From: Patescibacteria group bacterium UBA2193
GTDB taxonomy: Bacteria; Patescibacteriota; Minisyncoccia; Moranbacterales; DUUL01
Assembly: GCA_002327335.1 (NCBI GenBank)
Contig: DCVH01000032.1
Coordinates: forward strand, 1 to 35,775
DNA: 35,775 bases
Direction of reading: 5' to 3'
The translations under genes and the position numbers were made by a program. This document shows, piece by piece, positions 2,407 through 32,966 of the stretch; position 1 is the first letter of the stretch, and every line of letters begins with the position of its first letter. Under the pieces are notes generated by a model. That model saw only the letters and a list, made by a program, of their open reading frames with translations. It was not told the origin of the DNA and did not search any database.

Positions 2407-2416
2407 AAATGATTAA

Positions 2417-4015: not shown

Positions 4016-4093
4016 GTTGAAAAGAGAAAAATATTGATAAAAGTCTTCATTTCTGTAATAATGAGGAATATCTATTTTTATTTAAGATAAAAA

Positions 4094-5905: not shown

Positions 5906-5920
5906 TCTAAAATTAAATTT

Positions 5921-7042: not shown

Positions 7043-7090
7043 TAATTGGTATAATTATCACTTAATGTAAAAGTTGTACGAGCTATGATC

Positions 7091-7161
7091 GGATCCCACA
7101 CAAGTAAGTTATTTTGCCAAACGTTCCTAAGGTGTCAAAATAACTTACTTGTGTGGGATTC
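7091..7161. repeat. Long inverted repeat / stem-loop between the GT2-GtrA gene and GT-C paralog 4
   Basis: ATCCCACACAAGTAAGTTATTTTG (7093-7116) is perfectly complementary to CAAAATAACTTACTTGTGTGGGAT (7136-7159). Flanking G-U and G-C pairs extend the stem. The loop is 19 nt and no U-tract follows. Confidence 0.8.
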
Positions 7162-7241
7162 CTGTGGTTATTAGCTGGGAGCATATAGCAATATATTGTA
7201 TTAAGTTGATAGGAGTAGATTATGGTTAAACATAAAAATAG

Positions 7242-10308: not shown

Positions 10309-13300
10309 ATGTTTAAAACAGTTGATGCGAAAAGGAAATATTCAGAAATGGAAGGGGATGTTTTGAAGTTTTGGAAAGAGAATAAGATTTTTGAGAAGTC
10401 TGTTGAACAAAGGGGTGAGGACAAGCTTTATAGCTTTTATGACGGCCCACCATTTGCCACAGGAGAGCCTCATTACGGTCATATAGTTGGAAGTACCATG
10501 AAGGACGTTGTGCCTCGCTATTGGGCAATGAAGGGCTTCAGAGTGGAACGTCGTTGGGGCTGGGACTGTCATGGTTTGCCAATCGAAAATATCGCTGAAA
10601 AAGACCTTGGTATTCATCATAAAAAAGAAATAGAAGAGCTGGGCGTGGAAAAATTCAATGAAACCTGTCGAACAAAGGTTTTGAGTTATGTTGAAGAATG
10701 GGAAAAAGTGATTGATAAATTGGGGCGTTGGGCTGACATGAAAAATGGTTACAAAACGATGGATCTTGATTATATGGAATCAGTTTGGTGGGTCTTCAAA
10801 CAACTTTATGACAAAGGATTGATTTATGAAGGTTATCGGTCTATGCATATTTGTCCTCGATGTGAAACCACTCTTTCTCAGACAGAAGTTTCCGAAGGAT
10901 ATAAGGATATTAAAGATTTATCTGTAATTGCAGAATTTCGACTTATTGATGATGAAAAAACTTCCATTCTTGCTTGGACGACAACTCCTTGGACATTAAT
11001 TGGAAATGTGGCATTAGCAGTGGGATCTGACATTGATTATGTTAAAATTGAAAAAAAAGACGAAGGTACTGGGGGCTTAGTCTGTTTTATCTTAGCAAAA
11101 GAAAAATTGGAGAATCTTTTTGAAGGGCAGGATTATAAAATTATTGAAGAATTCAAGGGAGCGGAATTGGTGGGGAAGGCCTATCGGCCATTATTTGGTT
11201 ATTATTCCAATCAAGAAAATCTGGAAAATCGAGAAAATGGTTGGAAAGTTTGTGCAGGTAATTTTGTGACTACTGAGGATGGGACCGGGATTGTGCATAT
11301 CGCGCCAGCTTTTGGTGAAGATGACATGAATCTCGGGAAAGAAAACAATCTTCCTTTTGTGCAACATGTTGGCATGGATGGAATTATCAAGAAGGAAGCA
11401 ATGGATTTTGTGGGACTTTCTGTGAAACCGCTTGGCGATCATCAAAAAACGGATGTGGAAATTATTAAATATTTAGCTCACAATAATCTGCTTTTCTCAA
11501 AAGAAAAGTTTGAGCATAGTTATCCGCATTGTTGGAGATGTGATACTCCGCTGATAAATTATGCAACTTCTTCTTGGTTTGTGGCGATTACAAAAATTAA
11601 AGAAAAAATGCTGGAGAACGCCAAGATTCTTAATTGGGAGCCATCATATATTAAAGAGGGACGATGGGGAAATTGGCTTGAAGGCGCGAGAGATTGGTCA
11701 ATCAGCCGACAGCGTTATTGGGCATCTGTAATGCCGATTTGGAAGTGTGAATGTGGTGAAATAAAGGTAATTGGTTCTGTTAAGGAATTAGAAGAGCAGA
11801 AGGATCTTGGAATTTTTTATGTGATGCGACATGGAGAAGCGGGGAATAATGTTGAAAGAGTGTTGTCTTGTAAGGTTGGAGATGGTAAATTCTTAACAGA
11901 AAAGGGCGTTTCTGATGTAAATAATACTGCGGAAAAATTAGTTGATAAAAAAATAGACCTTATTATCTCTTCTGATATTGATCGAACCAAGCAAACCAGT
12001 GAAATTGTTGCCAAAAAACTGGGGGTTGAAATCATTTATGATTCTAGATTAAGAGAAACTGATACAGGTGATTATAATGGAGTAAAAATTGATGATATTA
12101 AGGATTTTGTTGATAATTGGGAGAATGGATGCAAAGAGAGTTTTCCAAATGGTGACAGCTGGGAAAATCTGGGAGAAAGAATGGAAAATTTCTATAATGA
12201 TATTTTTTCTAAATATCGAGGTAAGAAAATATTAGTAGTTTCTCACGGTGATTTAATTAATGCATTAGAAGCGAAATTTGTAGATGGTAATTATCTAGAT
12301 AATGTCAAAGCAGTTTATCAAAATAATTACATTAATAAAGCTGAGCTTAGGGAGAAAAAATACAAAATAATTGATCTTCATAAACACATTGTCGATAAAA
12401 TAACTTTTCCTTGCGAAAAATGCGGGAAAGAAATGAAAAGGATTCCGGATGTTCTGGATACCTGGTTTGATAGTGGTTCAATGCCATATGCCCAGGCGCA
12501 TTATCCGTTTGAAAATAAGGAAAAATTTGAAAAAAGTTTTCCGGCTGAATTTATTGCGGAAGGAATTGACCAAACTCGAGCCTGGTTCTATTATTTGCAC
12601 GCGATTGCTACCGGAATTTTTGACAAAGAAGCTTTTCGAAATGTGATTGTAAACGGAATTGTTTTGGCGGAAGATGGGAAAAAAATGTCCAAAAGACTCA
12701 AAAACTATCCAGATCCAACTGAAATGATTGAAAAATATGGAGCGGATGTTTTGAGATTTTATCTTCTTTATTCTCCGGTAGTTCGTGCCCAGAATCTTAA
12801 TTTTTCGGAAAAAGATCTAGCCGAATTTTCCCGGGGAATGTTTCGAATGATTCAGAATTCTTATTCATTCTTTGTTTTATATGCAAATATTGATAAATGG
12901 AGCCCTGCTGAAAAAACAGAACCTAAAAATTTATTGGACAAGTGGCTTTTATCTGAATTGAATATGTTGATTCGAGATGTTGATTTAGCGATGGAAAATT
13001 ATGAATTAAACAAAGCAGTTCGTCTTTTCCCGCAATTTGTTGATAATCTTTCCAATTGGTATATCAGGAGATCTCGAAGAAGATTTTGGAAAAGCGAGAG
13101 CGACGAAGACAAGAATAATGCCTATCAAACACTCTGGACAGTTTTGACAGAATTTTCAAAGGTTTTGGCACCATTTTGTCCTTTTATTTCCGAGGAAATT
13201 TATCGGAATTTAACAGGCGAAGAATCGGTGCATCTTTGTGATTTTCCGGTTGCTGATGAGAAATTAATTGATGAGAAGCTGAATGCAAACATGGGTGATC

Positions 13301-13791
13301 TTCGAGAGATTATAACATTGGGATTGCAAGATAGGGCTAAAAATAAAATCAAAGTTCGTCAACCATTGAAGCGCGTTTTTCTTGGGCAAAAATATATGAG
13401 AGTGTTCGAAGAGCTGATTAATGAAACAGAATGGAGCAACATTTTGACGGAAGAGCTTAATGTAAAAGGAGCAGAGCTTGGGACTGAAATTGAAACAATA
13501 ACAGTTGATATTGAAGTTACTCCAGAACTTAGACTTGAAGGCCAAATGCGGGAGCTTATTCGTCACATTCAACAAGCCAGAAAAGAGGCTGATTTCCAAA
13601 TTGATGATCGGATAGATGTCTTCTATGAAGGTGGGGCAGAAATTTTTGGAAAAACAGAATTATATGAAGAAATCAAAAAGGAAGTTCTGGCAAAAAAACT
13701 TGAAAAAGTTGGAAACGAGAAACCAGAAGCAGATATTGAAAAAGAAGCAAGAATTGATGATTTGATAATTAGATTTTGGTTGAAAAAATAA
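10309..13791 (+). CDS. ileS: Isoleucyl-tRNA synthetase, type 2 (eukaryote/archaeal-like), carrying an inserted extra domain
   Basis: 1160 aa. It has PHYGHIVG (HIGH), WGWDCHGLP, the editing-domain signature WTTTPWTLIGN, the WISRQRYW box, KMSKR (KMSKS), and no C-terminal Zn-finger peptide of type 1 enzymes. Confidence 0.95.
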   Translation: MFKTVDAKRKYSEMEGDVLKFWKENKIFEKSVEQRGEDKLYSFYDGPPFATGEPHYGHIVGSTMKDVVPRYWAMKGFRVERRWGWDCHGLPIENIAEKDLGIHHKKEIEELGVEKFNETCRTKVLSYVEEWEKVIDKLGRWADMKNGYKTMDLDYMESVWWVFKQLYDKGLIYEGYRSMHICPRCETTLSQTEVSEGYKDIKDLSVIAEFRLIDDEKTSILAWTTTPWTLIGNVALAVGSDIDYVKIEKKDEGTGGLVCFILAKEKLENLFEGQDYKIIEEFKGAELVGKAYRPLFGYYSNQENLENRENGWKVCAGNFVTTEDGTGIVHIAPAFGEDDMNLGKENNLPFVQHVGMDGIIKKEAMDFVGLSVKPLGDHQKTDVEIIKYLAHNNLLFSKEKFEHSYPHCWRCDTPLINYATSSWFVAITKIKEKMLENAKILNWEPSYIKEGRWGNWLEGARDWSISRQRYWASVMPIWKCECGEIKVIGSVKELEEQKDLGIFYVMRHGEAGNNVERVLSCKVGDGKFLTEKGVSDVNNTAEKLVDKKIDLIISSDIDRTKQTSEIVAKKLGVEIIYDSRLRETDTGDYNGVKIDDIKDFVDNWENGCKESFPNGDSWENLGERMENFYNDIFSKYRGKKILVVSHGDLINALEAKFVDGNYLDNVKAVYQNNYINKAELREKKYKIIDLHKHIVDKITFPCEKCGKEMKRIPDVLDTWFDSGSMPYAQAHYPFENKEKFEKSFPAEFIAEGIDQTRAWFYYLHAIATGIFDKEAFRNVIVNGIVLAEDGKKMSKRLKNYPDPTEMIEKYGADVLRFYLLYSPVVRAQNLNFSEKDLAEFSRGMFRMIQNSYSFFVLYANIDKWSPAEKTEPKNLLDKWLLSELNMLIRDVDLAMENYELNKAVRLFPQFVDNLSNWYIRRSRRRFWKSESDEDKNNAYQTLWTVLTEFSKVLAPFCPFISEEIYRNLTGEESVHLCDFPVADEKLIDEKLNANMGDLREIITLGLQDRAKNKIKVRQPLKRVFLGQKYMRVFEELINETEWSNILTEELNVKGAELGTEIETITVDIEVTPELRLEGQMRELIRHIQQARKEADFQIDDRIDVFYEGGAEIFGKTELYEEIKKEVLAKKLEKVGNEKPEADIEKEARIDDLIIRFWLKK
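11800..12369 (+). other. Histidine phosphatase superfamily (PGAM-like, branch 1) domain inserted in-frame within IleRS
   Basis: Residues ~498-687 contain FYVMRHGEAGNN (R507-H508), SSDIDRTKQTSE, LRETDTGDYNG and LVVSHGDLI (H646). The flanks are the two IleRS Cys pairs, WKCECGE and PCEKCGKE. Confidence 0.8.
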
Positions 13792-14791: not shown

Positions 14792-14809
14792 TGTTTTTAA
14801 AATGCTTTT

Positions 14810-16402
14810 CTACAGTTTACTATTTTTCAACGGTAATGTAAAACTAATTTTGGTTCCTTTGCCTTCTTCGCTTTCAATGCTGATTCTTCCTTTGTGTTCT
14901 TCTACAATATTTTTAGCAATAAACAAGCCCAATCCGCTTCCTTCTGTTTGCATTCTCATTACATTAGTAGCTCGGAAGAACTTTGTGAATAATTTAACTT
15001 TATCTTCTTCTGGAACACCAACTCCATTGTCTTTGACAGCAACTTCAAGAAAATCTTCTCCTTTCTTTTCAAGGATAATCTCAATCTTCCCAAACTCTGG
15101 TGTATATTTTATAGCATTATCTACGAGATTTTGCAAAACCAAAAGGATTCTTTCTTTGTCTATATACACTTTCGGCAGAGAAGGTGGTTTTGTAATTATC
15201 AATTTTTGATTATTTTTCTTTATGAGATTTTTAACATTATCATCAACAATGTCTATTACTTCCTGAAAATCGCACATATTAAAATCATAGCCAAATCTTC
15301 CTTCCTCGATTCGGGAAACACTGAGCAGATCATTTACAAGTTCAATAATTCTTTCATTACTTCGGTATCCTTTGTCCAGAAGCTCTTTTTGTTCGTCGTT
15401 TAATGTTCCACAGTCTTCATCGAGAATCATTTTAATTACCCATTTAATTGCAGAAAGAGGGGTTCTTAGTTGATGGGCGGCAATTGAAATAAACTCAGAT
15501 TTCATTCGATCAATCGCTTTTTCTCTGGTGAGATCATGGAATATTTTCATTGTTCCAAGATAAGAGTCTTTGTCAAAAACCTTGGCTGTAATCACTTTGT
15601 AAATAATTTCTTTATCGCCATTTTTTATGGTTACTTCCTCCGTTATCTCCTCTTCTGATTCAGAGCCTATTTCTTTAACCTCAAAATCTTTTCGAGCTAT
15701 TTTATGAAAATTGTTCATGGAAAAATTTTCATTTTCGAAAGCTTTTTGCCCAAGAGCGTCATCTCTTAAGCCAAAAACTTCTTTGGCCGCTGGATTGAGA
15801 AGACTAATAACCCCATTTTTATCAGCTACGATAATCGGGTCAACAAGATTGGAAAGAATGGCAGAGGTTTTGTTTTTTTCTTCTTCAACTTTTTTTCTAG
15901 CATCTTCTGTGTCCTCAAGCATGTTAATTAAGGACTTTTTTGTTCTTTCAAGCTCCTCAGTTCTTTCTGCGACCTTTTCCTCAAGCCCTTCTTGCAATTT
16001 TTTTATTTCCGTTATATCAGAAATAGCTAAAAAGAAGCCAATGAAATTCTTTTCTCGGTCTGTTCTTTTCGCAACAGAAACGTTGACGGACATTTTTTTG
16101 CCCTCCTTGGTAACCAGAATCATTTCTTGATTTTCGATGATTTCTTCGTTAGCTGATTTTTTTAGAAAATCATCGAGGAGGGTTTGATTTTCAAAAAGCT
16201 TGTTTGCATATTCTCCGATGAGATCAATTTCGCTGAATCCTGTCATTTTTTTAGCAGATTCATTGATGTCAACGATAACATTTCTTGGATTTATGGTGCA
16301 AACCGAAAGAGGAAGAAAAAAAGAAAACTCTTCAATATATTTTTCCAAACTTTCTATGTCCTCATAGATTTGTTGGGAAAGTTTGTCTTGTTGATTCTCC
16401 AT
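14810..16402 (-). CDS. Soluble PAS-domain sensor histidine kinase (HK1)
   Basis: 530 aa with no TM segment and PAS-like repeats. The HisKA H-box is SEFISIAAHQLRTPLSAI. The HATPase N/G boxes are NLVDNAIKYTP, DNGVGVP and GSGLGLFIAK. Confidence 0.9.
   Translation of the reverse strand: MENQQDKLSQQIYEDIESLEKYIEEFSFFLPLSVCTINPRNVIVDINESAKKMTGFSEIDLIGEYANKLFENQTLLDDFLKKSANEEIIENQEMILVTKEGKKMSVNVSVAKRTDREKNFIGFFLAISDITEIKKLQEGLEEKVAERTEELERTKKSLINMLEDTEDARKKVEEEKNKTSAILSNLVDPIIVADKNGVISLLNPAAKEVFGLRDDALGQKAFENENFSMNNFHKIARKDFEVKEIGSESEEEITEEVTIKNGDKEIIYKVITAKVFDKDSYLGTMKIFHDLTREKAIDRMKSEFISIAAHQLRTPLSAIKWVIKMILDEDCGTLNDEQKELLDKGYRSNERIIELVNDLLSVSRIEEGRFGYDFNMCDFQEVIDIVDDNVKNLIKKNNQKLIITKPPSLPKVYIDKERILLVLQNLVDNAIKYTPEFGKIEIILEKKGEDFLEVAVKDNGVGVPEEDKVKLFTKFFRATNVMRMQTEGSGLGLFIAKNIVEEHKGRISIESEEGKGTKISFTLPLKNSKL
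14816..15135. repeat. Copy 1 of a 320-bp near-identical repeat (3' end of HK1)
   Basis: By hand alignment at a constant offset of 4117 nt, it matches 18933-19252 at 319/320 positions. The single difference is at 15017/19134. Confidence 0.9.
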
Positions 16403-18905: not shown

Positions 18906-20708
18906 TTATTTATTTGCTTCTTTTTGCTTTATTTTACTATTTTTCAACGGTAATGTAAAACTAATTTTGGTTCCTTTGCCTTCTTCGCTTTCAATGCTGA
19001 TTCTTCCTTTGTGTTCTTCTACAATATTTTTAGCAATAAACAAGCCCAATCCGCTTCCTTCTGTTTGCATTCTCATTACATTAGTAGCTCGGAAGAACTT
19101 TGTGAATAATTTAACTTTATCTTCTTCTGGAACTCCAACTCCATTGTCTTTGACAGCAACTTCAAGAAAATCTTCTCCTTTCTTTTCAAGGATAATCTCA
19201 ATCTTCCCAAACTCTGGTGTATATTTTATAGCATTATCTACGAGATTTTGCAGAGCGAGAAGAATGCGATCTTTGTCCATATAGACTTCTGGCAGGATAT
19301 CTGGTTTAGTGATGACTAATTTTTGATGGCTCTTGGCAACAGCCCTTTCCACGTTTTCTGTGATGGTGATAAGAATTTCCTTGAAATCATATGTGCCGAA
19401 GTTATAGCCAAATTTTCCTTCTTCAATTGTGGAGGCGTTCAACAAATCATTTACAAGTTCAATGATTCTTTCGTTGCTTTTATAGCCTTTTTCGAGAAGT
19501 TCTGCTTGTTCCTTGTTGAGTTTTCCGACGTCTTCATCCAAAATCATTTTAATTACCCACTTAATTGCGGAAAGGGGAGTTCTTAGTTGATGAGCGGCAA
19601 CAGTGATAAATTCTGATTTCATTTTGTCTATTTGTTTTTCTCGGGTCAGGTCATAGAAAATCTTCAAAAATCCATAGCAAGCAGTTTTATCATTGCCTCG
19701 GCACACAGAAGTAGTGATCACTTTAAAAGTTTTTTGTTGACCTTTGTGTTCAATTTCAATTTCTTCAATAGGATTGTTATTTTCATCAAGCTCACTTACT
19801 TTTTCGTTTATTTTAAAATTATTTTTGATTAGTTTTTTGAAGTTAGCAAAACTATAGTGATTATCAGAAGAAATTTTTGTTCCATAGTTATTTTCGTTTA
19901 TGCCGAGAATTTCTTTTGTAGAAGCATTAACAAGGCTGATTTCCTTTCTGCTGTTGACGAAGATGATTGGACCGGTGAAATTGGCGACAATTGCACCTAT
20001 TTTATTTTTTTCTTCTGTCAATTCGGCATTTATTTTTGATAGAGATTTTTCTTTCCTGGAGAGAAGGCTTGTTTTTTTGCTGAGTTGTTTTGTCTGGGAT
20101 TCGAGAAGGTCTTCTCTTTTGAAAAGAAGGCTTGCTCCGTAACCACTATAAATTCCAATAATAATATAGAAAATCGAAGTGGTAATTGTTTTTGTTAAAA
20201 TAATTGGAAGACTGTTTAATTCAGGAGACAGCACTTCATATCTTGAAATGTGAGGAATGATGCCAAAAAATTCAAGGGTTACCAAGGTATTTATGAGCAA
20301 GGCAGCGAAAAGAGCGGTGATAATTGAGCCTTTGGTCCCTAGTAAATAAGAAGCAGAGACTATTGGCATAAAGAAAAAAGTTATAGCAACACTTTCTATT
20401 CCTCCGGCATAGTGCATTATCAAAGTCAGGATTCCTAGCTCGACAAAAACCTGTCCAATACTCAAAATATGAAGACCCTTAGCGGAGCGACTTCTGTTGA
20501 TTCGGCGGAAAGCTAGTTCAAAAACAATATTAATCAATGCAAAAATCATCAACAATAAAAGCATGTTGAGAATGGAAAAGTTGACATTGGAATGGCTCAG
20601 AACTTTTGAAACAGCACCAATTGCAAAAACACCCATTCCATAGAACCAGCGGGCATTGATCAGCCAACGATTAACTTCTATTTTTCTTTCTATATGTATA
20701 TTTAACAT
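18906..20708 (-). CDS. Membrane-bound PAS sensor histidine kinase (HK2)
   Basis: 600 aa. About 6 N-terminal TM helices are followed by a coiled coil and a PAS-like region. The H-box is SEFITVAAHQLRTPLSAI, and the HATPase domain is identical to that of HK1. Confidence 0.9.
   Translation of the reverse strand: MLNIHIERKIEVNRWLINARWFYGMGVFAIGAVSKVLSHSNVNFSILNMLLLLMIFALINIVFELAFRRINRSRSAKGLHILSIGQVFVELGILTLIMHYAGGIESVAITFFFMPIVSASYLLGTKGSIITALFAALLINTLVTLEFFGIIPHISRYEVLSPELNSLPIILTKTITTSIFYIIIGIYSGYGASLLFKREDLLESQTKQLSKKTSLLSRKEKSLSKINAELTEEKNKIGAIVANFTGPIIFVNSRKEISLVNASTKEILGINENNYGTKISSDNHYSFANFKKLIKNNFKINEKVSELDENNNPIEEIEIEHKGQQKTFKVITTSVCRGNDKTACYGFLKIFYDLTREKQIDKMKSEFITVAAHQLRTPLSAIKWVIKMILDEDVGKLNKEQAELLEKGYKSNERIIELVNDLLNASTIEEGKFGYNFGTYDFKEILITITENVERAVAKSHQKLVITKPDILPEVYMDKDRILLALQNLVDNAIKYTPEFGKIEIILEKKGEDFLEVAVKDNGVGVPEEDKVKLFTKFFRATNVMRMQTEGSGLGLFIAKNIVEEHKGRISIESEEGKGTKISFTLPLKNSKIKQKEANK
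18933..19252. repeat. Copy 2 of the 320-bp near-identical repeat (3' end of HK2)
   Basis: See copy 1. Identity falls abruptly to an ordinary paralog level beyond 19252. Confidence 0.9.
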
Positions 20709-22713: not shown

Positions 22714-23445
22714 CTATTTCAAATTGTTCCACGCAATATCAAAAATTTGTTTTTGAGCGAATGATGACTCGGGACTTTCCATGATAGTCGTGATTCGAGG
22801 TCCTGATAATTGATGAGAAAGTATTTTTTGGGGAGTAAAAACCAGGTTTGCATGAATCTGAGTCCCTTTTGGTAATAATTTTACTTGTTCGTTATAATTT
22901 TTTTGATGTTTTAGTGAATTTCTTCCGAATTCGTTGTCAACCAACATTAATTTCAAATCCAAGTTCATTTTCGCTCTTTTGCGCATGAATTTTTCAAAAA
23001 ATATTGGGTCGGTGTTGTACCAAAGGTTTCCATCGCTGACGATATAGTAAAAATCTCCAGATTTGAGGTTTTCTAGCATAGACAAAAAAGCTGATCTCAT
23101 CCCATTGATTCCTTTAAAATGAAAAATTTCATTGGTTCCAATGTTTTGGCATTTTTCTACTTTTGATTTTAAAGTGTTTATTACCTGATTGGTTTGTTGC
23201 TCGACAAGATTTTTAAGGTTTTCGGGTGATTCAGCTGAATAATATTTTTTGAAACCTGTTTCTTTTAATTTAAAAAGTCCCATTTCCATTAAATTATTAA
23301 TCAGAGCATAGACATTTGTTCGTCCCAGTCCTGTTTTCAGGGAAATCTCTGATATCTTAGTTGGGCCAAGTTCAAGACCGGCAAGATAAACCTGTGCCTC
23401 ATTTTCTTTCAAGCCTAATTTTTCTAGTTCTTTTAAAAAGTTCAT
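22714..23445 (-). CDS. TrmB-family transcriptional regulator (paralog 1 of 4)
   Basis: 243 aa. The N-terminal winged HTH is LGLKENEAQVYLAGLELGPTKISEISLKTGLGRTNVYALINNLMEMGL. The C-terminal domain and its ending (FDIAWNNL) are shared with the ORFs at 25533, 27452 and 30796. Confidence 0.8.
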   Translation of the reverse strand: MNFLKELEKLGLKENEAQVYLAGLELGPTKISEISLKTGLGRTNVYALINNLMEMGLFKLKETGFKKYYSAESPENLKNLVEQQTNQVINTLKSKVEKCQNIGTNEIFHFKGINGMRSAFLSMLENLKSGDFYYIVSDGNLWYNTDPIFFEKFMRKRAKMNLDLKLMLVDNEFGRNSLKHQKNYNEQVKLLPKGTQIHANLVFTPQKILSHQLSGPRITTIMESPESSFAQKQIFDIAWNNLK

Positions 23446-25532: not shown

Positions 25533-26297
25533 TTACAGTCTCTCCCACATAAATTCCAAATATGTCTTGATTGTTTCGGCGATTGATTTATCTTCTATTA
25601 GTGTCGCCGTTATTTTGTCGTAAGATATAAGTGCAGTTAGATTGCCGGAGACAACAATATCAGCAGAAAGTTTAATTTCGGGCGGAAGAAATTTTGTATG
25701 TGTTGCTCCTTTGCCAATTTCAGCAAATTTACGATTGAGTGGCGTATCTTCCAAAATCATTCGATAAAAAACATTTTGTTTTTTTATATTTTCAAAATAT
25801 TTTTCTTCCATTTTAGCAGGAATTGCCTTAATTGCGGTTTCGTATGATCCGCAATTTATCGCTTCATGGCTTTTCAAAATATACTCATCAAAAATCTTGT
25901 TAATTCCATCCACTCCTTCGAAAAACTTTACCTGCGGTTTATTTTCCTGGTTAATATCAATCGCTTTGAGTATTGGCAGAATGGTATTTTGCAACAACGC
26001 CTCTTCTTTTTTTACTGCCTCTCGTTTTTTTTCAATAAGTTGATTGATGTTATCAGGGCTTTCCGCAACAAATAATTTCTTCTTACCTTTTCGGCTTTCT
26101 GCGATGAGTCCTTTTTGCTTCAATTCATCCAGAGCAGAATAGACGCTCACGCGATTTACTCCAGTTGTTCGAGAAACATCTTGAACAGAAGAAGCGCCGT
26201 TTTCCAAAAGTGAAAGATAGGTTAAAATCTCTTTTTCCGTGAAATTAAGTTGTAAAAGAGCTTTTGTCAGATTTTCTGAGATGATTTTCTTTTTCAT
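25533..26297 (-). CDS. TrmB-family transcriptional regulator (paralog 2 of 4)
   Basis: 254 aa. The wHTH is FTEKEILTYLSLLENGASSVQDVSRTTGVNRVSVYSALDELKQKGL. The C-terminal ending is YLEFMWERL. Confidence 0.8.
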   Translation of the reverse strand: MKKKIISENLTKALLQLNFTEKEILTYLSLLENGASSVQDVSRTTGVNRVSVYSALDELKQKGLIAESRKGKKKLFVAESPDNINQLIEKKREAVKKEEALLQNTILPILKAIDINQENKPQVKFFEGVDGINKIFDEYILKSHEAINCGSYETAIKAIPAKMEEKYFENIKKQNVFYRMILEDTPLNRKFAEIGKGATHTKFLPPEIKLSADIVVSGNLTALISYDKITATLIEDKSIAETIKTYLEFMWERL

Positions 26298-26548: not shown

Positions 26549-26830
26549 TTATATCTTCAAATCCGAATATTCCCGCAAAGTTTTCAGTGTCGCTTGTACT
26601 GTTTCATTTTCAGTGTTTGTTAGTTTCACATTTTTGAATTTTTCAGCAATTTTTGTGATTACTTCATCCGCCCAAGACGGCGCTATGACTTTCACACCAG
26701 AAAAATCAATTTCAATTTCCTCATCTTCTTTAAGATCTTTCAAATTATAAGCTGAAATTGTCAAAAATGCCTCTCGACCGGCAGGACGAGAAACTAGGAC
26801 ATCACCAATTTTTTGCAGTTCAATACGCAT
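26549..26830 (-). CDS. STAS-like protein (DUF4325-type, anti-sigma-antagonist-like fold)
   Basis: 93 aa. The pattern VLVSRPAGREA...IEIDFSGVKVIAPSWADEVI is typical of small STAS-like proteins that partner with GHKL ATPases. Confidence 0.6.
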   Translation of the reverse strand: MRIELQKIGDVLVSRPAGREAFLTISAYNLKDLKEDEEIEIDFSGVKVIAPSWADEVITKIAEKFKNVKLTNTENETVQATLKTLREYSDLKI

Positions 26831-26834
26831 AAAA

Positions 26835-27437
26835 TTATAAGGTTATTATTGCTAAACATCCTCCAATATCCTCCAAGTTTTCTTCTATTTTCATTTGATC
26901 ATTTAGTTCCGCTTTAGCAGCTCCGCTATAAAAAGTTAGATGCATTTTTTTGCTTTGCACATTTTCTCTCACAAATTTTAAACCATTGCCACGTTTTTCC
27001 GGAGCCCGCCCAGAAATTCTTTCAGTAAAGGCCGTCATCAATGCCTCTTGGTCGTTTTTGATTTCCGATTTAACTCTTTTAAGCGTGTTGAAAATTCCGC
27101 GTCCTCTATCGGCTAAAACTATCTCTATTTTGTTTTCAGAAAAAGAATATCCAAAAAATATTCCTGGGACATCCTTCCAGTTCCCAACATTATGGTCAAA
27201 AGAATTATTAGCGATTTCACCAACTACTGCAGAAACAATTGAGGCATCCTTTTCTCTTTTTTCAAAAAGCTCCCTGACCATTCTCCCAAATCTCGCCTCA
27301 AAAACATCTCTCGTCGCACAGTAAAAATCACTGGCAATATCAACATTGCTAGCTTTCGCCATAATCCACTCATAAGCTAATTTTCTTTGGGAATTTTCCA
27401 TGTTTTTATTATAGTTTATTTTAAGGTTAAAAGTCAA
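26835..27437 (-). CDS. GHKL-type ATPase / anti-sigma-factor-like serine kinase (RsbW/SpoIIAB-like)
   Basis: The N-box is GEIANNSFDHN, the G1 box is ADRGRGI and the G2 box is RGNGLKFV. The listed start at 27437 is TTG. The in-frame ATG at 27401 (MENSQRK) is the more likely start. Confidence 0.65.
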   Translation of the reverse strand: MTFNLKINYNKNMENSQRKLAYEWIMAKASNVDIASDFYCATRDVFEARFGRMVRELFEKREKDASIVSAVVGEIANNSFDHNVGNWKDVPGIFFGYSFSENKIEIVLADRGRGIFNTLKRVKSEIKNDQEALMTAFTERISGRAPEKRGNGLKFVRENVQSKKMHLTFYSGAAKAELNDQMKIEENLEDIGGCLAIITL

Positions 27438-27451
27438 AAATCAAAATAGTT

Positions 27452-28198
27452 TTAATTTTCTGAATTTCCCGCCCCTCTCCACGCCAACTCAAAAATCGCC
27501 TTTTGCGAACGGGCGATTTCGGCTGATTCTATAATCATGCCAAACATTTCCGTTCCATAGCTGGCGATGGCGATTTTGTTTTTGTAGATATTGGTTTCGT
27601 TGGAAATTGGAAAATCTTTTTCGTTTAGAATTATCACTTCACGAAGTTGCTGTGCGTTATTTTCCATGTATTTTCTGATCGCAGGAGAATCTTTATAGAT
27701 CCCTCGAAGTCTGATGCTTTTTGACACTCTTCTTTTTATGTAATTATCCGAATATTTTTGAAGATTTTTCAGTGTATCTTCCCCCACGTAAGCCAGAATT
27801 TCATCACCTTTTTTTAAACTTTTAAGACTGTCTTCCCACATTTCTTTGATTCCTTCCTTGCCTTCAAAATATCTAATAAGCGGTTTTTCTTTTGGTGAAT
27901 TGTAGAGATTCTGAAGAGAAGGCATTATGGAATTTATCCTTTCCTCTTTTTCTTTGATTTTTTTGATTAAAATTTCCGGATCAGCCGGAGAAAAATATTT
28001 CACATTGCCTTTGATTGATTTGTAGATCAAACCTTCTTTCATCAATTGATTAACAATATCATAGACAGTCGGACGTTTCAGCCCGACTTTTTTTGCTAAT
28101 GAATAGGCGGTTACCCCTCCCATTTCCAAGGTTGCCAGATAGACTTCCGCTTTTTTATCTTCCATTCCAAATTGTCTCAAAATTTCTTTTATTTCCAT
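27452..28198 (-). CDS. TrmB-family transcriptional regulator (paralog 3 of 4)
   Basis: 248 aa. The wHTH is EDKKAEVYLATLEMGGVTAYSLAKKVGLKRPTVYDIVNQLMKEGL. The C-terminal ending is FELAWRGAG. Confidence 0.8.
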   Translation of the reverse strand: MEIKEILRQFGMEDKKAEVYLATLEMGGVTAYSLAKKVGLKRPTVYDIVNQLMKEGLIYKSIKGNVKYFSPADPEILIKKIKEKEERINSIMPSLQNLYNSPKEKPLIRYFEGKEGIKEMWEDSLKSLKKGDEILAYVGEDTLKNLQKYSDNYIKRRVSKSIRLRGIYKDSPAIRKYMENNAQQLREVIILNEKDFPISNETNIYKNKIAIASYGTEMFGMIIESAEIARSQKAIFELAWRGAGNSEN

Positions 28199-28204
28199 CT
28201 CATT

Positions 28205-28228
28205 GTCATCCCCGTGAAAACGGGAATC
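28205..28228. repeat. REP-like palindromic element, copy a
   Basis: GTCATCCCCGTGAAAACGGGAATC lies 7 nt upstream of the TrmB3 start codon. It belongs to the family GTCATYCCCRYGAAWRYGGGRATC. Confidence 0.7.
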
Positions 28229-28361
28229 TAGTTCAATAAATTATTCTATTCGTAATTTTCCGACTACTGAATATAGCCTAGCATAATTGCCAAATAAGTC
28301 AATTAATAAAGGCTTTGTAAGATAATTTAGAAACGCAATTAATAAATTATGACGGTAAACA

Positions 28362-28389
28362 TTGAATATATTATTTAGAAGAGTATAAT
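28362..28389 (+). promoter_or_regulatory. Putative promoter of the radical SAM cluster
   Basis: TTGAAT (28362-28367), a 16-nt spacer, then TATAAT (28384-28389). Confidence 0.45.
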
Positions 28390-28442
28390 AAACAGTTCCA
28401 GTTCGTTGACAATTACATAATATTCAAAGAAGGAGCTAGCCA

Positions 28443-28634
28443 ATGTTTACTCAAAATGTTGTTGAAGGTTTTGTTTGTTTTTCATTTGCTTCACCCTTTT
28501 TAGCAATTCTGATTACGGCTTTTATTGTAAATAGGCAAGATAAAAAAATGCTCAAGTTATTAGTTATCAAACTGATGGAGGGTGCTCTTATTATTCGCCT
28601 CATTTATTTTCTTAGTTTTAAGGTAATACATTAA
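28443..28634 (+). CDS. Small hydrophobic protein (63 aa, ~2 TM segments)
   Basis: The SD AGGAG (28431-28435) lies 7 nt before the ATG. Hydrophobic stretches are FVCFSFASPFLAILITAFIV and ALIIRLIYFLSF. It is the first gene of the radical SAM cluster. Confidence 0.55.
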   Translation: MFTQNVVEGFVCFSFASPFLAILITAFIVNRQDKKMLKLLVIKLMEGALIIRLIYFLSFKVIH

Positions 28635-28656
28635 AAAAAATCGGGGGGGGATAAAA

Positions 28657-29760
28657 ATGAAGAAAATAGAACAAGAAATAAAATTCCACAAGGAAAAACT
28701 TTGGGCTTATTGGCGGAAGAATCTTGGCGAAAAATTTGCCAAACATCCATTAGAAATAATTCAATGGGAGGCGACGAGAAGATGTGATTTACAATGTAAA
28801 CATTGCGGATCGCCAAGGGAAAACGTAAATCTTCAAAGCGAATTATCAACTAAAGAAGTCATTTCTGCTTTTACTCAAATAAAAAACGGCATTGATCTCA
28901 GCGGATTCAAATTTATCACTATTACCGGTGGCGAGCCATTTTTAAGAGCTGATTTATTTAAGGTTTTGGCTTTATTTAAATCATTCGGCTGGATAACAAC
29001 AATTCAGACTAATGGAAATTTTTTGGCACAAAATCCGGAAAGAATTCCAGAACTTTTGAATTTGGGGGTGGCTGGGATTGGTCTTGATCTTGATGGCGCT
29101 GAAGAATTGCATGATGATCTGCGTTGTCGTTTGGGGCATTGGCGACAAACCAGAGAGCTTGTTAAAAAACTTCTTAAGTACAGTGACGTTTTGCACACAA
29201 CCGTTACTACGGTTGTGTCAAAACAAAACATTTCAAGTCTTCCGAATCTTTGGAAGGAAATCGAGATATTGGATTCTCATCGCTGGAGACTTTTGCCGAT
29301 TGAAAATATTGGTCGTGCAAAAAATAAAAATTTAGCGTTAGATAGAGCAGACTATTTAAACCTTTTGAGTTTTGTGACCGAAAAAAGATTACTGAAATTA
29401 AATGAGCAATCAGTGCAAACTGAGTTGGGTTGCGTCGGCTGGTTTGGAAAAAATCTGGAAGGCGCAATTCGTCCTTATGTTTGGTCTTGTATTGCCGGGC
29501 GGACATGTCTTGGAATTATGTATGATGGAGGAATCAGTGCTTGTGCTCACATTGATCGGGCATTTTTGCAAGGCAATGTGCGTAAGGATAATATTTATGA
29601 TGTTTGGGAGAATAGTTTCGAAATTTTTCGTGATCGCCCCAAACAAAAGATTTGTCTGTGCTGTCCGGAAAAAGATTTCTGCACTTTGTCGATGCATAAA
29701 CTTGATGCATTCGGCAGAATACGTGAATGCGTATTTAATAATCTAACGGAAGGGAGGTGA
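28657..29760 (+). CDS. Radical SAM enzyme with a C-terminal SPASM/twitch-like Cys-rich domain
   Basis: 367 aa. ATRRCDLQCKHCGS provides the CX3CX2C motif and ITGGEPFLR the SAM-binding GGE motif. C-terminal cysteine clusters are WSCIAGRTCLGIMYDGGISACAH and ICLCCPEKDFC. Confidence 0.85.
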   Translation: MKKIEQEIKFHKEKLWAYWRKNLGEKFAKHPLEIIQWEATRRCDLQCKHCGSPRENVNLQSELSTKEVISAFTQIKNGIDLSGFKFITITGGEPFLRADLFKVLALFKSFGWITTIQTNGNFLAQNPERIPELLNLGVAGIGLDLDGAEELHDDLRCRLGHWRQTRELVKKLLKYSDVLHTTVTTVVSKQNISSLPNLWKEIEILDSHRWRLLPIENIGRAKNKNLALDRADYLNLLSFVTEKRLLKLNEQSVQTELGCVGWFGKNLEGAIRPYVWSCIAGRTCLGIMYDGGISACAHIDRAFLQGNVRKDNIYDVWENSFEIFRDRPKQKICLCCPEKDFCTLSMHKLDAFGRIRECVFNNLTEGR

Positions 29761-29765
29761 GATTA

Positions 29766-29942
29766 ATGATGGTGATTATTGATGGGAAAAGTATACAATT
29801 GGCTCCTGAAGCTGTCGAAAGAATAGCAGGGAAAATGAAAGAGCTTAGCGAGACAGTCGCCAAGGCGCTTGATGCTGATCCAACAGCAGGAGTATATTCA
29901 ATGTATGTTGCCTTTCCTGCTATCGAACAAGTTCGGGCATAA
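29766..29942 (+). CDS. Short peptide ORF (58 aa), candidate precursor peptide or accessory protein
   Basis: The SD GGAGG (29753-29757) overlaps the end of the radical SAM gene, and the ATG is at 29766. The ORF track starts it at GTG 29757. It is Cys-free with an aromatic-rich C-terminus: AGVYSMYVAFPAIEQVRA. Confidence 0.6.
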   Translation: MMVIIDGKSIQLAPEAVERIAGKMKELSETVAKALDADPTAGVYSMYVAFPAIEQVRA

Positions 29943-29958
29943 TTTCAACAGTTAAATG

Positions 29959-29989
29959 GAGGCGAGCTTCTGGAGAAGAAGCCCGCCTC
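29959..29989 (+). promoter_or_regulatory. GC-rich stem-loop between the peptide ORF and the methyltransferase gene
   Basis: GAGGCGAGCUUC pairs with GAAGCCCGCCUC at 11 of 12 positions around a 7-nt loop. No U-tract follows. Confidence 0.6.
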
Positions 29990-30007
29990 AAAGTTAAGAG
30001 GTGAAAG

Positions 30008-30724
30008 ATGAATGATGCTGTGGAAAAGGTTAGAAAATTTTACGAAACATTTGATTTCAGCAAAATTATTACTAACTCACCAAAACAAATTCAGGATTTT
30101 TTAGACAAAGAAAATGAATGGATTAGGAATCATCTTTGGATCGGGAAAAATGTTTTAGAAATTGGTTGTGGCTATGGGAGGCTTACTGAAAAAATTGCTT
30201 CACTCGCAAAAAGTATAGCAGGAATTGATTATAGCTTGCCTCTTATCGAAAAGAGCAGGATTTCATTGGTAGCGTTGTCTAATATTTCGTTGGCTCTTAT
30301 GGACGCTACTGAATTGGGGTTTGCAAAAAATATTTTTGGTAGCGTTGTTTGTTTTAATGCTTCTTTCTCTAATATGCCGGGGATTGAAATAAAAGTGTTG
30401 CGCGAGATGAAACGGGTTTGTAAAAATGGTGGGGAAGTAATATTTTCTGTTTTATCGGAAAAAGCAAAAAAAGCTCAATTGGAAAATTATTTAAGACTGG
30501 GATTAAAAATTATTAATCAGGATAAGAATTCAATCACAACCAAAGAAGGATTAGTTTCGTGTCGTTTCTCTCGAAAAGATCTTGAGTTTCTTTTAAATCG
30601 AATGAAAATGGAATATGAGATAATAGAGTTTTGTTCAATTGGATATTTGGTAATTGCAAAAAAGCGGAGTGATTATTACATCACATCCGCTTTTTTCTAT
30701 CTTAAATATGCGGTTTTCTATTGA
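30008..30724 (+). CDS. Class I SAM-dependent methyltransferase
   Basis: 238 aa. Motif I is VLEIGCGYGRLT, with GIDYS and CKNGGEVIFSV downstream. The SD is AAGAGGTGA. The last ~20 codons run through a terminator hairpin and repeat element. Confidence 0.75.
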   Translation: MNDAVEKVRKFYETFDFSKIITNSPKQIQDFLDKENEWIRNHLWIGKNVLEIGCGYGRLTEKIASLAKSIAGIDYSLPLIEKSRISLVALSNISLALMDATELGFAKNIFGSVVCFNASFSNMPGIEIKVLREMKRVCKNGGEVIFSVLSEKAKKAQLENYLRLGLKIINQDKNSITTKEGLVSCRFSRKDLEFLLNRMKMEYEIIEFCSIGYLVIAKKRSDYYITSAFFYLKYAVFY

Positions 30725-30783
30725 ATGGATCACCGCCTTGCGCCACCGCTAAAGCTTTGGCGACACGCGGTCGCGGGGATGAC
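30664..30783. repeat. Composite element: terminator hairpin (family H, copy 2), conserved spacer and a long REP-like palindrome
   Basis: The hairpin GCGGA-G-UGAU...AUCA-CA-UCCGC plus U6 spans 30664-30696. The spacer matches the copy at 32881 at 41/51 positions (hand alignment, no gaps). It ends in GGATCACCGC...CGCGGGGATGAC (30727-30783). Confidence 0.7.
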
Positions 30784-30795
30784 AAAAGGGCAAGG

Positions 30796-31533
30796 TTATT
30801 TTATGGAATTCCACATAAAATTGAAGAGTTCTTTTTGGAGGCGGATGATGTTTTTGTTTTCGATTGCCATCACCATAACAGGTGGGGTGGTTTGGTGGAT
30901 GAGGATTTTGTAAGGGGTGATTGTGATTGAGGCAGAAAGCTGGATTTCTTGAGGAAAAATTTTGATTTGCATGTTATAGATCGTTTCATTTTGTTTGTAT
31001 TTTCTGGCGATTTCAGAATCTTGCAGGAGAAGCCTGTTATTTAGTTTTTTGTTTGCACGTTTTTCGACAAATTTTTCAAAAAACTTTTGATCTTCCGACA
31101 TCCATTTGGCGGAATCGCTGATAACCCAATAATCTTCACCAAATTTCACCTCATCCAAAAGATCGAGGTGAATATTTTTTATTGCTTCCACTCCTTCGTA
31201 ATATTTTATTAAACTGCTTCCTCCCTCGGCGCTGTATAGAGTTTTCAAGTCAGGAAGACTTTCTTGCAGTTTTTGTTTTTTGTTTTCTATGATTCTTTCT
31301 AGTTTATCGGGATTTTCAGCAGAATAGAAGGTTTTCCAGCCTATTTGTTCAATTTTCATCAAACCCATCTGTTTGAGACTCTCCACCGCTGAATAGACGG
31401 TGGTTCTTTTAATTTCTGAAGCTTTGGAAATCTTTAGGATGGTGGTTTTCCCAAGAGAAAGGGCATTGAGATAGACGGTTGCTTCATTCTCGCTGAGCCC
31501 CATTTCAATTAGGTTTTTTTGTAGATTATTCAT
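30796..31533 (-). CDS. TrmB-family transcriptional regulator (paralog 4 of 4)
   Basis: 245 aa. The wHTH is LSENEATVYLNALSLGKTTILKISKASEIKRTTVYSAVESLKQMGL. The C-terminal ending is FNFMWNSIK. Confidence 0.8.
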   Translation of the reverse strand: MNNLQKNLIEMGLSENEATVYLNALSLGKTTILKISKASEIKRTTVYSAVESLKQMGLMKIEQIGWKTFYSAENPDKLERIIENKKQKLQESLPDLKTLYSAEGGSSLIKYYEGVEAIKNIHLDLLDEVKFGEDYWVISDSAKWMSEDQKFFEKFVEKRANKKLNNRLLLQDSEIARKYKQNETIYNMQIKIFPQEIQLSASITITPYKILIHQTTPPVMVMAIENKNIIRLQKELFNFMWNSIK

Positions 31534-31568
31534 ATCACAGAATTATTTTTTTGTATAAAAATTTTCTT

Positions 31569-31670
31569 GTCATCCCCGCGAATGCGGGGATCCAGTTTGT
31601 AGTAGAACTTATTTAACAAGGCAAGATTGTGTTTATCAATCTTCTGGATTCCCATTTTCATGGGAATGAC
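31569..31670. repeat. Inverted pair of REP-like palindromes (MITE-like, ~102 bp)
   Basis: GTCATCCCCGCGAATGCGGGGATCC (31569-31593) and the inverted copy GGATTCCCATTTTCATGGGAATGAC (31646-31670) are separated by 52 nt. No coding capacity lies between them. Confidence 0.65.
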
Positions 31671-32849: not shown

Positions 32850-32858
32850 AATCAAAAA

Positions 32859-32966
32859 GCGGTCTGATGAGAATCATCGACCGCTTTTTTCTATCTCAAG
32901 TACCTGGTTTTCTGTCGAATGGATTCCTGCCGGAGTTTATGCTCGCGAAGGCGGGTACAGGAATGA
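32859..32966. repeat. Composite element: terminator hairpin (family H, copy 4), conserved spacer and a long REP-like palindrome
   Basis: GCGGUC-U-GAUGA / UCAUC-GACCGC plus U6 is followed by the conserved 51-nt spacer. It ends in GGATTCCTGCC...GGGTACAGGAATGAC (32921-32966). It sits between convergent genes. Confidence 0.7.

Follow-up and report, generated by a model that had tools for sequence, protein, structure and literature searches.

The window analysed here is a stretch of 35,775 nt from contig DCVH01000032.1 of Patescibacteria group bacterium UBA2193. It holds a compact plus-strand operon in which the gene of a radical S-adenosylmethionine (SAM) enzyme with a SPASM domain is followed by an open reading frame (ORF) for a peptide of 58 amino acids (aa) and by the gene of a class I SAM methyltransferase. 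The features are collected in Table 1, with positions counted on the forward strand. The original prediction for this locus, made from the letters alone, was of a candidate pathway for a peptide that is made by the ribosome and modified after translation (RiPP), and the ORFs, cysteine motifs, Shine-Dalgarno overlap, hairpin and methyltransferase on which it was built were all found where it had placed them. Comparison with related loci, which are referred to below by L numbers, indicates that the radical SAM enzyme and the 58-aa peptide are very likely an enzyme and its substrate.

Table 1. Features of the radical SAM operon and its flanks in the window
Feature	Position	Strand	Remarks
TrmB-family winged-helix regulator gene	27452-28198	-	Pfam TrmB 52.9 bits; divergent from the operon
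Conserved intergenic block ATTCGTA..CCGACTACT..AGTATAGCAT near the TrmB start	28248-28285		Invariant columns in five aligned intergenic regions from the Candidate Phyla Radiation (CPR)
Sigma-70-like promoter TTGAAT-16-TATAAT	28362-28389	+	10/12 consensus positions matched
Hydrophobic ORF, 63 codons	28443-28634	+	AAGGAG 8 nt before the ATG
Radical SAM/SPASM gene, 367 aa	28657-29760	+	Stop codon 29758-29760; Pfam and NCBIfam scans
Shine-Dalgarno sequence GGGAGG of the 58-aa peptide gene	29752-29757	+	Within the final codons of the radical SAM gene
Putative precursor peptide gene, type C, 58 aa	29766-29942	+	61 aa if the start is GTG 29757
Conserved core D38-P-T-A-G-V-Y-S-M-Y47-V-A-F-P51	29877-29918	+	Tyr47 codon 29904-29906
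GC-rich hairpin 3' of the precursor gene, no U-tract	29959-29989	+	dG -26.5 kcal/mol, z = -5.7, 0/200 shuffles as stable
Class I SAM methyltransferase gene, 238 aa	30008-30724	+	Methyltransf_25 57 bits; also Methyltransf_11/31
Intrinsic terminator: A-tract, 15-16 bp stem, U-tract	30658-30696	+	dG -19 kcal/mol, z = -6.2, 0/200 shuffles as stable
TrmB-family gene, downstream	30796-31533	-	Pfam scan

A predicted promoter had been placed at the head of the operon. Promoter-like sites of this kind are not significant by count (6 found vs 8.1 +/- 2.9 expected), but TTGAATA at -35 and the TA...T positions at -10 are invariant across an alignment of five CPR loci, and the operon promoter is for this reason more than a chance match. 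Transcription would start there, divergently from the TrmB-family gene, and would run across the 63-codon orphan, the gene of the radical SAM/SPASM enzyme, the coupled 58-codon precursor ORF, a strong hairpin and the methyltransferase gene to the terminator. The conserved block near the TrmB start is probably a promoter or operator of that regulator gene. The arrangement for translational coupling recurs, since enzyme and peptide genes overlap or abut in L001, L003, L005 and L166. The fold of the hairpin behind the peptide gene is strong, and GC-rich hairpins stand at the equivalent position in L003, there with a U-tract, and in L005, in line with the earlier remark on stem-loops after precursor genes; the hairpin probably serves as a 3' stabiliser or an attenuator. 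The terminator closes the operon within the part of the methyltransferase ORF that lies beyond the homologous region.

The conservation of the 58-aa ORF beside related enzymes was followed in 21 loci of the enzyme family, which cover CPR bacteria, Woesearchaeota, Deltaproteobacteria, Thermodesulfovibrionia, Zixibacteria, Planctomycetota, Nitrospirae and Caldilineae. A homologue of the peptide adjoins the enzyme gene in 20 of the 21. The sole exception, the Caldilineae locus L006, lies on a contig that ends 54 nt past the enzyme gene; the search for a peptide there found none, and the C-terminus of the upstream protein is without the motif. Named matches to peptide or enzyme further include Pacearchaeota, Thorarchaeota, Acidobacteriota and Armatimonadota. 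A profile search with the peptide returned 450 proteins at E <= 0.01, and the 120 matches listed are each unnamed or 'hypothetical', none with a Pfam domain; in profile searches among 5.8 billion proteins the E-values were as low as 1e-22. No NCBIfam model was found for any of the three peptide subtypes described below. By these comparisons, the 58-aa ORF is a real and conserved partner of the radical SAM enzyme, as had been proposed. Searches of the open literature for 'TIGR04133', the NCBIfam family closest to the enzyme, or for the peptide core string 'NNMYGCHP' found nothing, and those combining Patescibacteria, RiPP and radical SAM found only general surveys of biosynthetic gene clusters.

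The 63-aa ORF behaves differently from the peptide. JGI, ENA and Logan list it as a gene and NCBI does not, it has no homologue in the 21 related loci, and a phmmer search against 1.84 billion representatives returned itself and one match at E = 1e-3. The alternative that gives this ORF the role of substrate, or a part in immunity or export, draws on its strong Shine-Dalgarno sequence, its two hydrophobic stretches and its place after the conserved promoter and ahead of the enzyme gene. However, the distance from promoter to enzyme gene in L003 and L005 is too short for such an ORF, the slot is filled by unrelated genes in L001 and L167, and an orphan offers no candidate shared by the family. 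As a family component the ORF is effectively refuted, and we regard the alternative as extremely improbable.

The peptides fall into three subtypes that can be aligned with one another, and the only features common to all are a leader leucine (L35 in the window peptide), an (N/D)-P turn (P39) and one tyrosine (Y47). Type A has the core NPVE[YF]VNNMYGCHP within sequences that read ...KKRMLEWPNPVE[YF]VNNMYGCHPDDDDNEYFKVIFAK; its gene precedes that of the enzyme, and its hosts (Woesearchaeota, Deltaproteobacteria, Thermodesulfovibrionia, Zixibacteria and Sedimentisphaerales) have enzymes 37-41% identical to that of the window. Type B, with the core NPLTGIYSIYGDYP (...MLDNPNPLTGIYSIYGDYPIE...), was seen in Nitrospirae and Thorarchaeota. 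Type C is the CPR form, with the core [DN]PT[AE]GVYSMYV in an ORF of 46-64 aa that lies 3' of the enzyme gene in L001, L003, L005, L166, L167 and L173; a variant of 55 aa in L172 (...NNPVAGSYSIYV...) has I-Y-V. One further peptide, P0267 (...NPVEGVYSMYGDHP...), bridges the subtypes. In the window peptide residues 1-37 form the leader, which is variable, charged and helical and ends at Leu35, and the core starts at D38. The C-terminal segment AGVYSMYV, singled out beforehand for its aromatic residues, is exactly the conserved core.

Conservation within the core is centred on a single residue. The equivalent of Tyr47 is invariant at 160/160 core sites of types A, B and C, and it is followed by Gly at all 129 type A sites and all 14 type B sites, and by Val at all 17 type C sites. 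The residue at +2 is C, S or A in type A, D in type B and V, S, A, N or C in type C. The string P-V-E-x-V-N-N-M-Y-G-C-H-P is nearly invariant over the 129 type A sites, P-T-x-G-V-Y-S-M-Y-V is identical in 17/17 type C peptides, and segments C-terminal of the core are also conserved inside each subtype. Two core units in tandem, R[IM]A..NPVE.VNN[MI]YG[CS]HP, occur in nine peptides, most of which are from Pacearchaeota. The window peptide has no cysteine and CPR cores mostly have none, which, together with one tyrosine that is invariant in all subtypes, fits the earlier preference for Tyr-directed chemistry over thioethers. Membership among the sactipeptides or ranthipeptides was rejected, as the window peptide and the type B cores are without cysteine and the cysteine of type A is replaced by Ser or Ala in 12/129 sites. 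The region around Tyr47 is probably the site of modification.

The enzyme matches Radical_SAM (PF04055, 66.6 bits, cut-off 29.5) and SPASM (PF13186, 29.8 bits, cut-off 21.5) in Pfam, and the motifs read beforehand from the sequence were confirmed: C43-x3-C47-x2-C50, G91-G92-E93, C278-x5-C284-x11-C296 and C333-L-C335-C336-x5-C342. In an alignment of 43 homologues the invariant residues are C43/C47/C50, G91-G92-E93, C259, C278, C296, C333, C336, C342, C358 and H347. The conserved pattern of the SPASM region is C278-x12-G291-x4-C296 and C333-x2-C336-x5-C342, which together with C259 and C358 makes seven C-terminal cysteines; the fourth cysteine of CX2CX5CX3C is replaced by M346-H347 throughout the enzyme family, and likewise in TIGR04133. 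Compared with about 80 database proteins the enzyme is 36-78% identical, the named ones being from Parcubacteria, Moranbacteria, Pacearchaeota and Armatimonadota. Its top NCBIfam match is TIGR04133 ('rSAM_w_lipo'; 205.1 bits over residues 21-360, cut-off 425), and every other model, sactipeptide maturases included, gives at most 106 bits, far under its own cut-off. From these scores the enzyme is best placed as an outlying relative of TIGR04133. A clustering with some non-peptide family, which had been named as a point to check, was not observed among the NCBIfam models, the best match being a SPASM enzyme with a protein partner. A relation to the heme and heme d1 enzymes (NirJ, AhbC/D) was likewise rejected, with 74-102 bits vs cut-offs of 500-650 and no heme genes nearby.

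An AlphaFold2 model of the enzyme (mean predicted local distance difference test score 91.7) has a single N-terminal helix ahead of the barrel. The nearest solved folds are SkfB, SuiB, PqqE, anSME and CteB (template modelling score 0.6-0.69, 17-23% identity); these are generic SPASM maturases, and the comparison does not discriminate between chemistries. In profile alignment the N-terminus of the enzyme begins past the RiPP recognition element (RRE) domains of CteB and SuiB. Since only one helix precedes the barrel and the alignment starts after those domains, the enzyme has no RRE domain of its own; none was found by profile alignment or in the model, and Pfam and NCBIfam gave no PqqD/RRE match. 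Natural fusions between the enzyme and its peptide were not found. Five residues set the CPR-clade enzymes apart from the rest, and four of these (S277, A297, H298 and T343) flank cysteines of the auxiliary clusters. These four parallel the change from Gly to Val in the substrate, which suggests that the active-site region of the enzyme changed together with its peptide in the CPR clade.

The relation to TIGR04133 extends to the partner gene. A sister tier of 76 metagenomic loci scored 128-179 bits; with 578-588 bits, those of its members that were tested, from gut and rumen metagenomes, are TIGR04133 proper. Directly upstream of these sister enzymes lies an ORF that belongs to TIGR04134, 'radical SAM-associated putative lipoprotein' (91-112 bits, cut-off 39.8). 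Both families are from Bacteroidota, and both are of the NCBIfam type 'hypoth_equivalog' without an assigned function. Tyr-Gly occurs in 52/58 of the upstream TIGR04134-type lipoproteins, with 85 Y-G sites among 425 tyrosines where about 37 would be expected from the frequency of Gly, and the context is [E/M/C/V/L]-Y-G-[T/V/S]-P. The window enzyme has in TIGR04133 its best-scoring, full-length match, and shares with it the signature C-x2-C-x5-C...[M/L]-H in place of the fourth SPASM cysteine and a same-strand partner gene directly adjacent, that of TIGR04134 carrying x-Y-G-(x)-P sites. There are also differences. At 205.1 bits the window enzyme stays under the cut-off, with about 30-34% identity; the partner here has 40-90 aa and is of cytoplasmic type with a charged leader, whereas TIGR04134 is a lipoprotein of 180-250 aa; the peptides of the window and of types A and B are all without an NCBIfam match; the window clade has Y-V rather than Y-G; and the CPR clade has the opposite gene order, with the peptide after the enzyme.

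We also observed enzymes of intermediate similarity (TIGR04133 373 bits, below the cut-off), whose partner ORFs lie at 1445-1777 in L090, 1297-1629 in L091, 3566-3835 in L128 and 1109-1453 in L130. The partner in this group is downstream and has 110 aa, with a signal peptide, then PMYGV or PLYGI, then a transmembrane segment, and would be a third kind of Y-G substrate. What the members of the superfamily have in common, as read from these sequences, is a neighbouring substrate with [M/L/I]-Y-G or x-Tyr-Gly and a proline close behind, the CPR clade excepted.

It could be argued that the small ORF is not a substrate at all but an accessory or chaperone subunit like PlpY, MftB or PqqD, with the enzyme acting on another protein or on a metabolite. 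The enzyme has no RRE domain of its own, and SPASM enzymes often have small partner proteins alongside (PMC11414181). Yet the conserved part of the peptide is a short linear motif with an invariant Tyr and Pro and not a domain of the size of a fold, no PqqD or RRE relation was seen, and in the sister family the place of the peptide is taken by lipoproteins unrelated to it, with nothing but the Y-G site in common. The motif is also tandemly duplicated in the nine peptides mentioned above, which fits a substrate motif and not a chaperone. We consider an accessory role very unlikely.

With regard to the chemistry, X-Tyr-Gly is the splice site of the spliceotides, at which tyramine is excised, and occurs as MYG or LYG in PlpA, PcpA, RcsA and RasA (PMC11414181, PMC11626197, PMC10533398). 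The known systems compared here are PlpX/PlpY/PlpA, PcpX, RhaX/RhaA, RcsX and RasX (Morinaka 2018 and Scott 2022, as cited in PMC11414181, PMC11626197 and PMC10533398). Minimal splice tags are AVAAMYGVVFP and PIRPLYGLPI; binary splicease systems without a separate RRE protein exist, and 27 confirmed and 939 predicted systems have been reported (PMC11414181, PMC11626197, PMC10533398, PMC10849128). The modules described here resemble these systems in having a radical SAM/SPASM enzyme beside its precursor, a putative tyrosine target in [M/L]-Y-G with a proline within 1-3 residues in types A and B, and no separate RRE protein, with probably core-proximal recognition. The two-site precursor PcpA has a counterpart in the nine two-core peptides, and TIGR04103 (the PlpX family) ranks second or third among the NCBIfam matches of L007, L092 and L126. 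The likeness of NNMYGCHP, SIYGDYP and xYG[TV]P to splice sites is the strongest lead to function, by analogy, but does not amount to membership. The X-Tyr-Gly motif is found at 143/143 type A and B sites but is lacking in the window peptide, which has M46-Y47-V48 as do the other type C peptides (17/17 Y-V). Against the PlpX model TIGR04103 the window enzyme scores 97 bits (cut-off 725), a generic similarity. The precursors here also lack a Nif11 or NHLP leader, and a dedicated methyltransferase is associated with them.

On this evidence we favour, with moderate confidence, a RiPP-like maturation operon in which the peptide would undergo a Tyr-centred rearrangement of the splicease kind. The proposal of a RiPP pathway is in so far supported, by a conserved enzyme-peptide pair, a maturase family of the peptide type and a likely target in Tyr47. 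Because it has no RRE domain, the enzyme would probably recognise the core-proximal block directly. SAM would be cleaved at the C43/C47/C50 cluster, with attack at or beside Tyr47, and two auxiliary clusters would handle the redox work; their seven cysteines are conserved, Met-His standing in for the fourth of CX2CX5CX3C. A backbone rearrangement centred on the tyrosine is the most likely type of reaction since the related enzymes (types A and B, TIGR04134) all pair with [M/L/I]-Y-G-(x)1-2-P sites. As for the Val of the CPR clade, either splicing tolerates it here or the clade moved to another reaction of the tyrosine. Splice-type excision is likelier for types A and B than for the CPR clade, where excision of tyramine itself must be called doubtful. 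The methyltransferase would then methylate the product as an accessory step.

The same pair might instead form an oxidative cross-link at Tyr47, either as a triceptide-like three-residue cyclophane that joins the ring of the tyrosine to the beta-carbon two residues on (Y-V-A, residue +2) or as a C-O or C-C link to a side chain nearby, possibly followed by methylation. A residue after the tyrosine that varies between Gly (types A and B) and Val (type C) is tolerated by a cross-link and not by the published X-Y-G splice motif, residue +2 has a beta-carbon in all subtypes, and the nearest folds include SuiB, which cross-links Lys to Trp, and PqqE, which links Glu to Tyr. The spacing of an aromatic residue and two further residues, the second always with a beta-carbon, and a SPASM-class enzyme recall the triceptides. 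However, a Gly conserved after the tyrosine in most of the family, and found again as Y-G in TIGR04134, is unexplained if position +1 is a spacer; triceptides usually have repeated aromatic motifs where each core here has a single site, and no triceptide-maturase model is among the best 25 NCBIfam matches. A cross-link seems rather unlikely to us but is a serious rival of splicease-type chemistry, which is ranked ahead of it.

The G-V-Y triplet had suggested an analogy with mycofactocin, in which a SPASM enzyme also acts beside a short peptide containing Val-Tyr. This analogy fails. MftA ends in GVY, while the triplet here is internal (residues 42-44 of 58) and its tyrosine is not the invariant one, MftC (TIGR03962) gives 62.9 bits vs a cut-off of 265, and no MftB/D/E/F genes lie nearby. 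Pyrroloquinoline quinone is similar in its highly conserved short peptide with a target tyrosine, and PqqE is among the nearest solved structures; membership was rejected, as PqqE (TIGR02109) gives 61.6 bits vs a cut-off of 381, there are no pqqB/C/D genes nearby, and the Glu of the PqqA motif E-x3-Y is not conserved in type C, where position 41 is A or E.

A broader form of the same logic, that of PqqA and MftA, would make the peptide a scaffold for a small molecule or cofactor: Tyr47 is modified, proteases release the product, the methyltransferase finishes it, and a Liv-type importer exchanges the product or a fragment in free-living bacteria. In such bacteria the module does lie within a Liv-type ATP-binding cassette (ABC) importer locus (L169 5633-14204; L170 2415-12033), in the order Peripla_BP_6 lipoprotein, peptide, enzyme, methyltransferase-domain protein of 848-875 aa, two BPD_transp_2 permeases and two ATPases. 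This setting of types A and B, the extreme conservation of the core over bacterial and archaeal phyla (129 near-invariant type A sites) and the retention of the module in small CPR and DPANN genomes speak for a scaffold. The PqqE and MftC models, at 62-63 bits, are nevertheless far from their cut-offs (381 and 265), the conserved neighbours include no homologue of a peptidase, of an oxidase, of PqqB/C/D or of MftB/D/E/F, GVY is internal rather than C-terminal, and the conserved segments beyond the core within subtypes suggest that the whole peptide matters. Such a scaffold is, in our estimate, quite improbable. L170 also contains a second, unrelated SPASM enzyme, whose best match is a tungsten-cofactor maturase model (105 bits).

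Several observations weigh against a RiPP-like operon of splicease kind. The window clade lacks the Gly of X-Y-G, with M-Y-V in 17/17 and I-Y-V in L172, and the score against TIGR04103 is no better than that against NirJ2 or TIGR04053. No conserved protease or exporter was found in the cluster neighbourhoods, and the methyltransferase is absent from L167 and L173, both of them CPR loci. Conservation across phyla as extreme as that of this peptide is atypical of RiPP antibiotics; on its sequence the peptide is far too conserved for a typical hypervariable antibiotic, and a cofactor-like or structural role would fit equally well. It would not be unreasonable, though we hold it unlikely, to suppose that the CPR enzyme performs a Tyr-directed radical reaction at X-Tyr-Val that is neither tyramine splicing nor a described cross-link, with a product, a conserved modified small protein or a metabolite, kept by CPR and DPANN despite genome reduction, and that this product or the Tyr fragment cut out of the peptide is not an antibiotic but a signal or nutrient exchanged via the Liv-type importer in free-living bacteria.

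The findings define an unnamed peptide family of at least 450 clusters at 90% identity, without a Pfam or NCBIfam model or a mention in the open literature that was searched, and assign to it a cognate radical SAM enzyme; peptide and enzyme occur together in CPR, in DPANN and further archaea, and in no fewer than eight additional lineages of bacteria. The shared Tyr-Gly site links it to TIGR04133/TIGR04134 of gut Bacteroidota and allows one hypothesis for both, namely excision of tyramine or a related reaction of tyrosine. The Gly-to-Val change of the CPR clade, with the co-varying residues of its enzymes, amounts to a natural experiment on the role of the Gly in the splice motif. It is unusual for RiPP-like chemistry to be kept in ultra-small symbiont genomes, and the same holds for a module inside amino-acid-type ABC importer loci; both contexts raise the question of the role of a nearly invariant modified peptide.

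The methyltransferase is present in L001, L003, L005, L166, L007 and L009, and overall in five distinct CPR loci. Along its full length it shares 34% identity with the one that follows the enzyme in Woesearchaeota L007 (E = 3e-32), and for this reason the two belong to a specific orthologue group common to CPR and DPANN; the homology stops near residue 219 (about 30664). Its assumed place in the cluster holds in part, for it is a frequent partner of this specific group but is missing from two loci, and from its distribution we take it to be an accessory tailoring enzyme, frequent but dispensable. The methyltransferase-domain protein of type A loci was rejected as an orthologue, the two having only a generic fold in common (27% identity over 59 residues). 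The membrane and other proteins downstream in L014, L015 and L170 were also rejected as parts of the module, as they have no family matches and no mutual similarity. In L172 (5001-6114) a frameshift splits the radical SAM gene, and transposase ORFs like those of insertion sequences come after it, a case of module decay or an assembly error.

Of the two TrmB regulators said to bracket the operon, only the upstream one is conserved with the module. Its orthologue is divergently placed before the module in L001, L003, L005, L167 and L172, and in all it accompanies the module in six CPR loci; archaeal loci have a divergent double AsnC-type regulator in its place. The downstream gene was rejected as a part of the module, being not conserved elsewhere and one of four TrmB paralogues in the window. 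These four lie within 9 kb on the minus strand (22714-23445, 25533-26297, 27452-28198 and 30796-31533; 52-53 bits each), and among them only the gene at 27452-28198 is represented by orthologues beside the radical SAM module. A small repeated hairpin element, AUCCCCG-N4-CGGGGAU-GACAA, stands in the 5' leaders of two of the TrmB genes, on the minus strand (28200-28232 and 31564-31596; z = -3.1 and -4.1), with a partial copy at 30772-30785 on the plus strand; this element could act as a regulatory RNA or DNA site common to both genes. Two similar intrinsic terminators, within 30658-30737 and 32858-32931, each precede a 51-nt repeat whose copies are 80% identical, CCGCTTTTTTCTATCT.AA.TA..TGGTTTTCT.T.GAATGGAT...GCC. 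Between two of the TrmB paralogues, at 26549-27437 on the minus strand, a STAS-like DUF4325 protein of 93 aa is preceded by an ORF of 200 aa without a Pfam match, and the two may be a partner-switching pair.

Elsewhere in the window, a segment is duplicated at 14806-15549 and 18923-19666, 4117 nt apart. The copies are 98% identical in a stretch of 300 nt and 76% identical in the next 290 nt, and they reach into the 3' portions of two long minus-strand ORFs, 14810-16402 and 18906-20708, which suggests paralogues with recent gene conversion. A class I aminoacyl-tRNA synthetase of 1160 aa (tRNA-synt_1, Anticodon_1) is encoded at 10309-13791 on the plus strand, with His_Phos_1 inserted in its catalytic domain at residues 504-687 (114 bits). 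Four large paralogous ORFs of 532-603 aa, at 664-8999 on the plus strand, share repeats of 58-71 nt with conserved 'TTTGCTTGGAATCC' segments, and resemble a tandem family of membrane or surface proteins.

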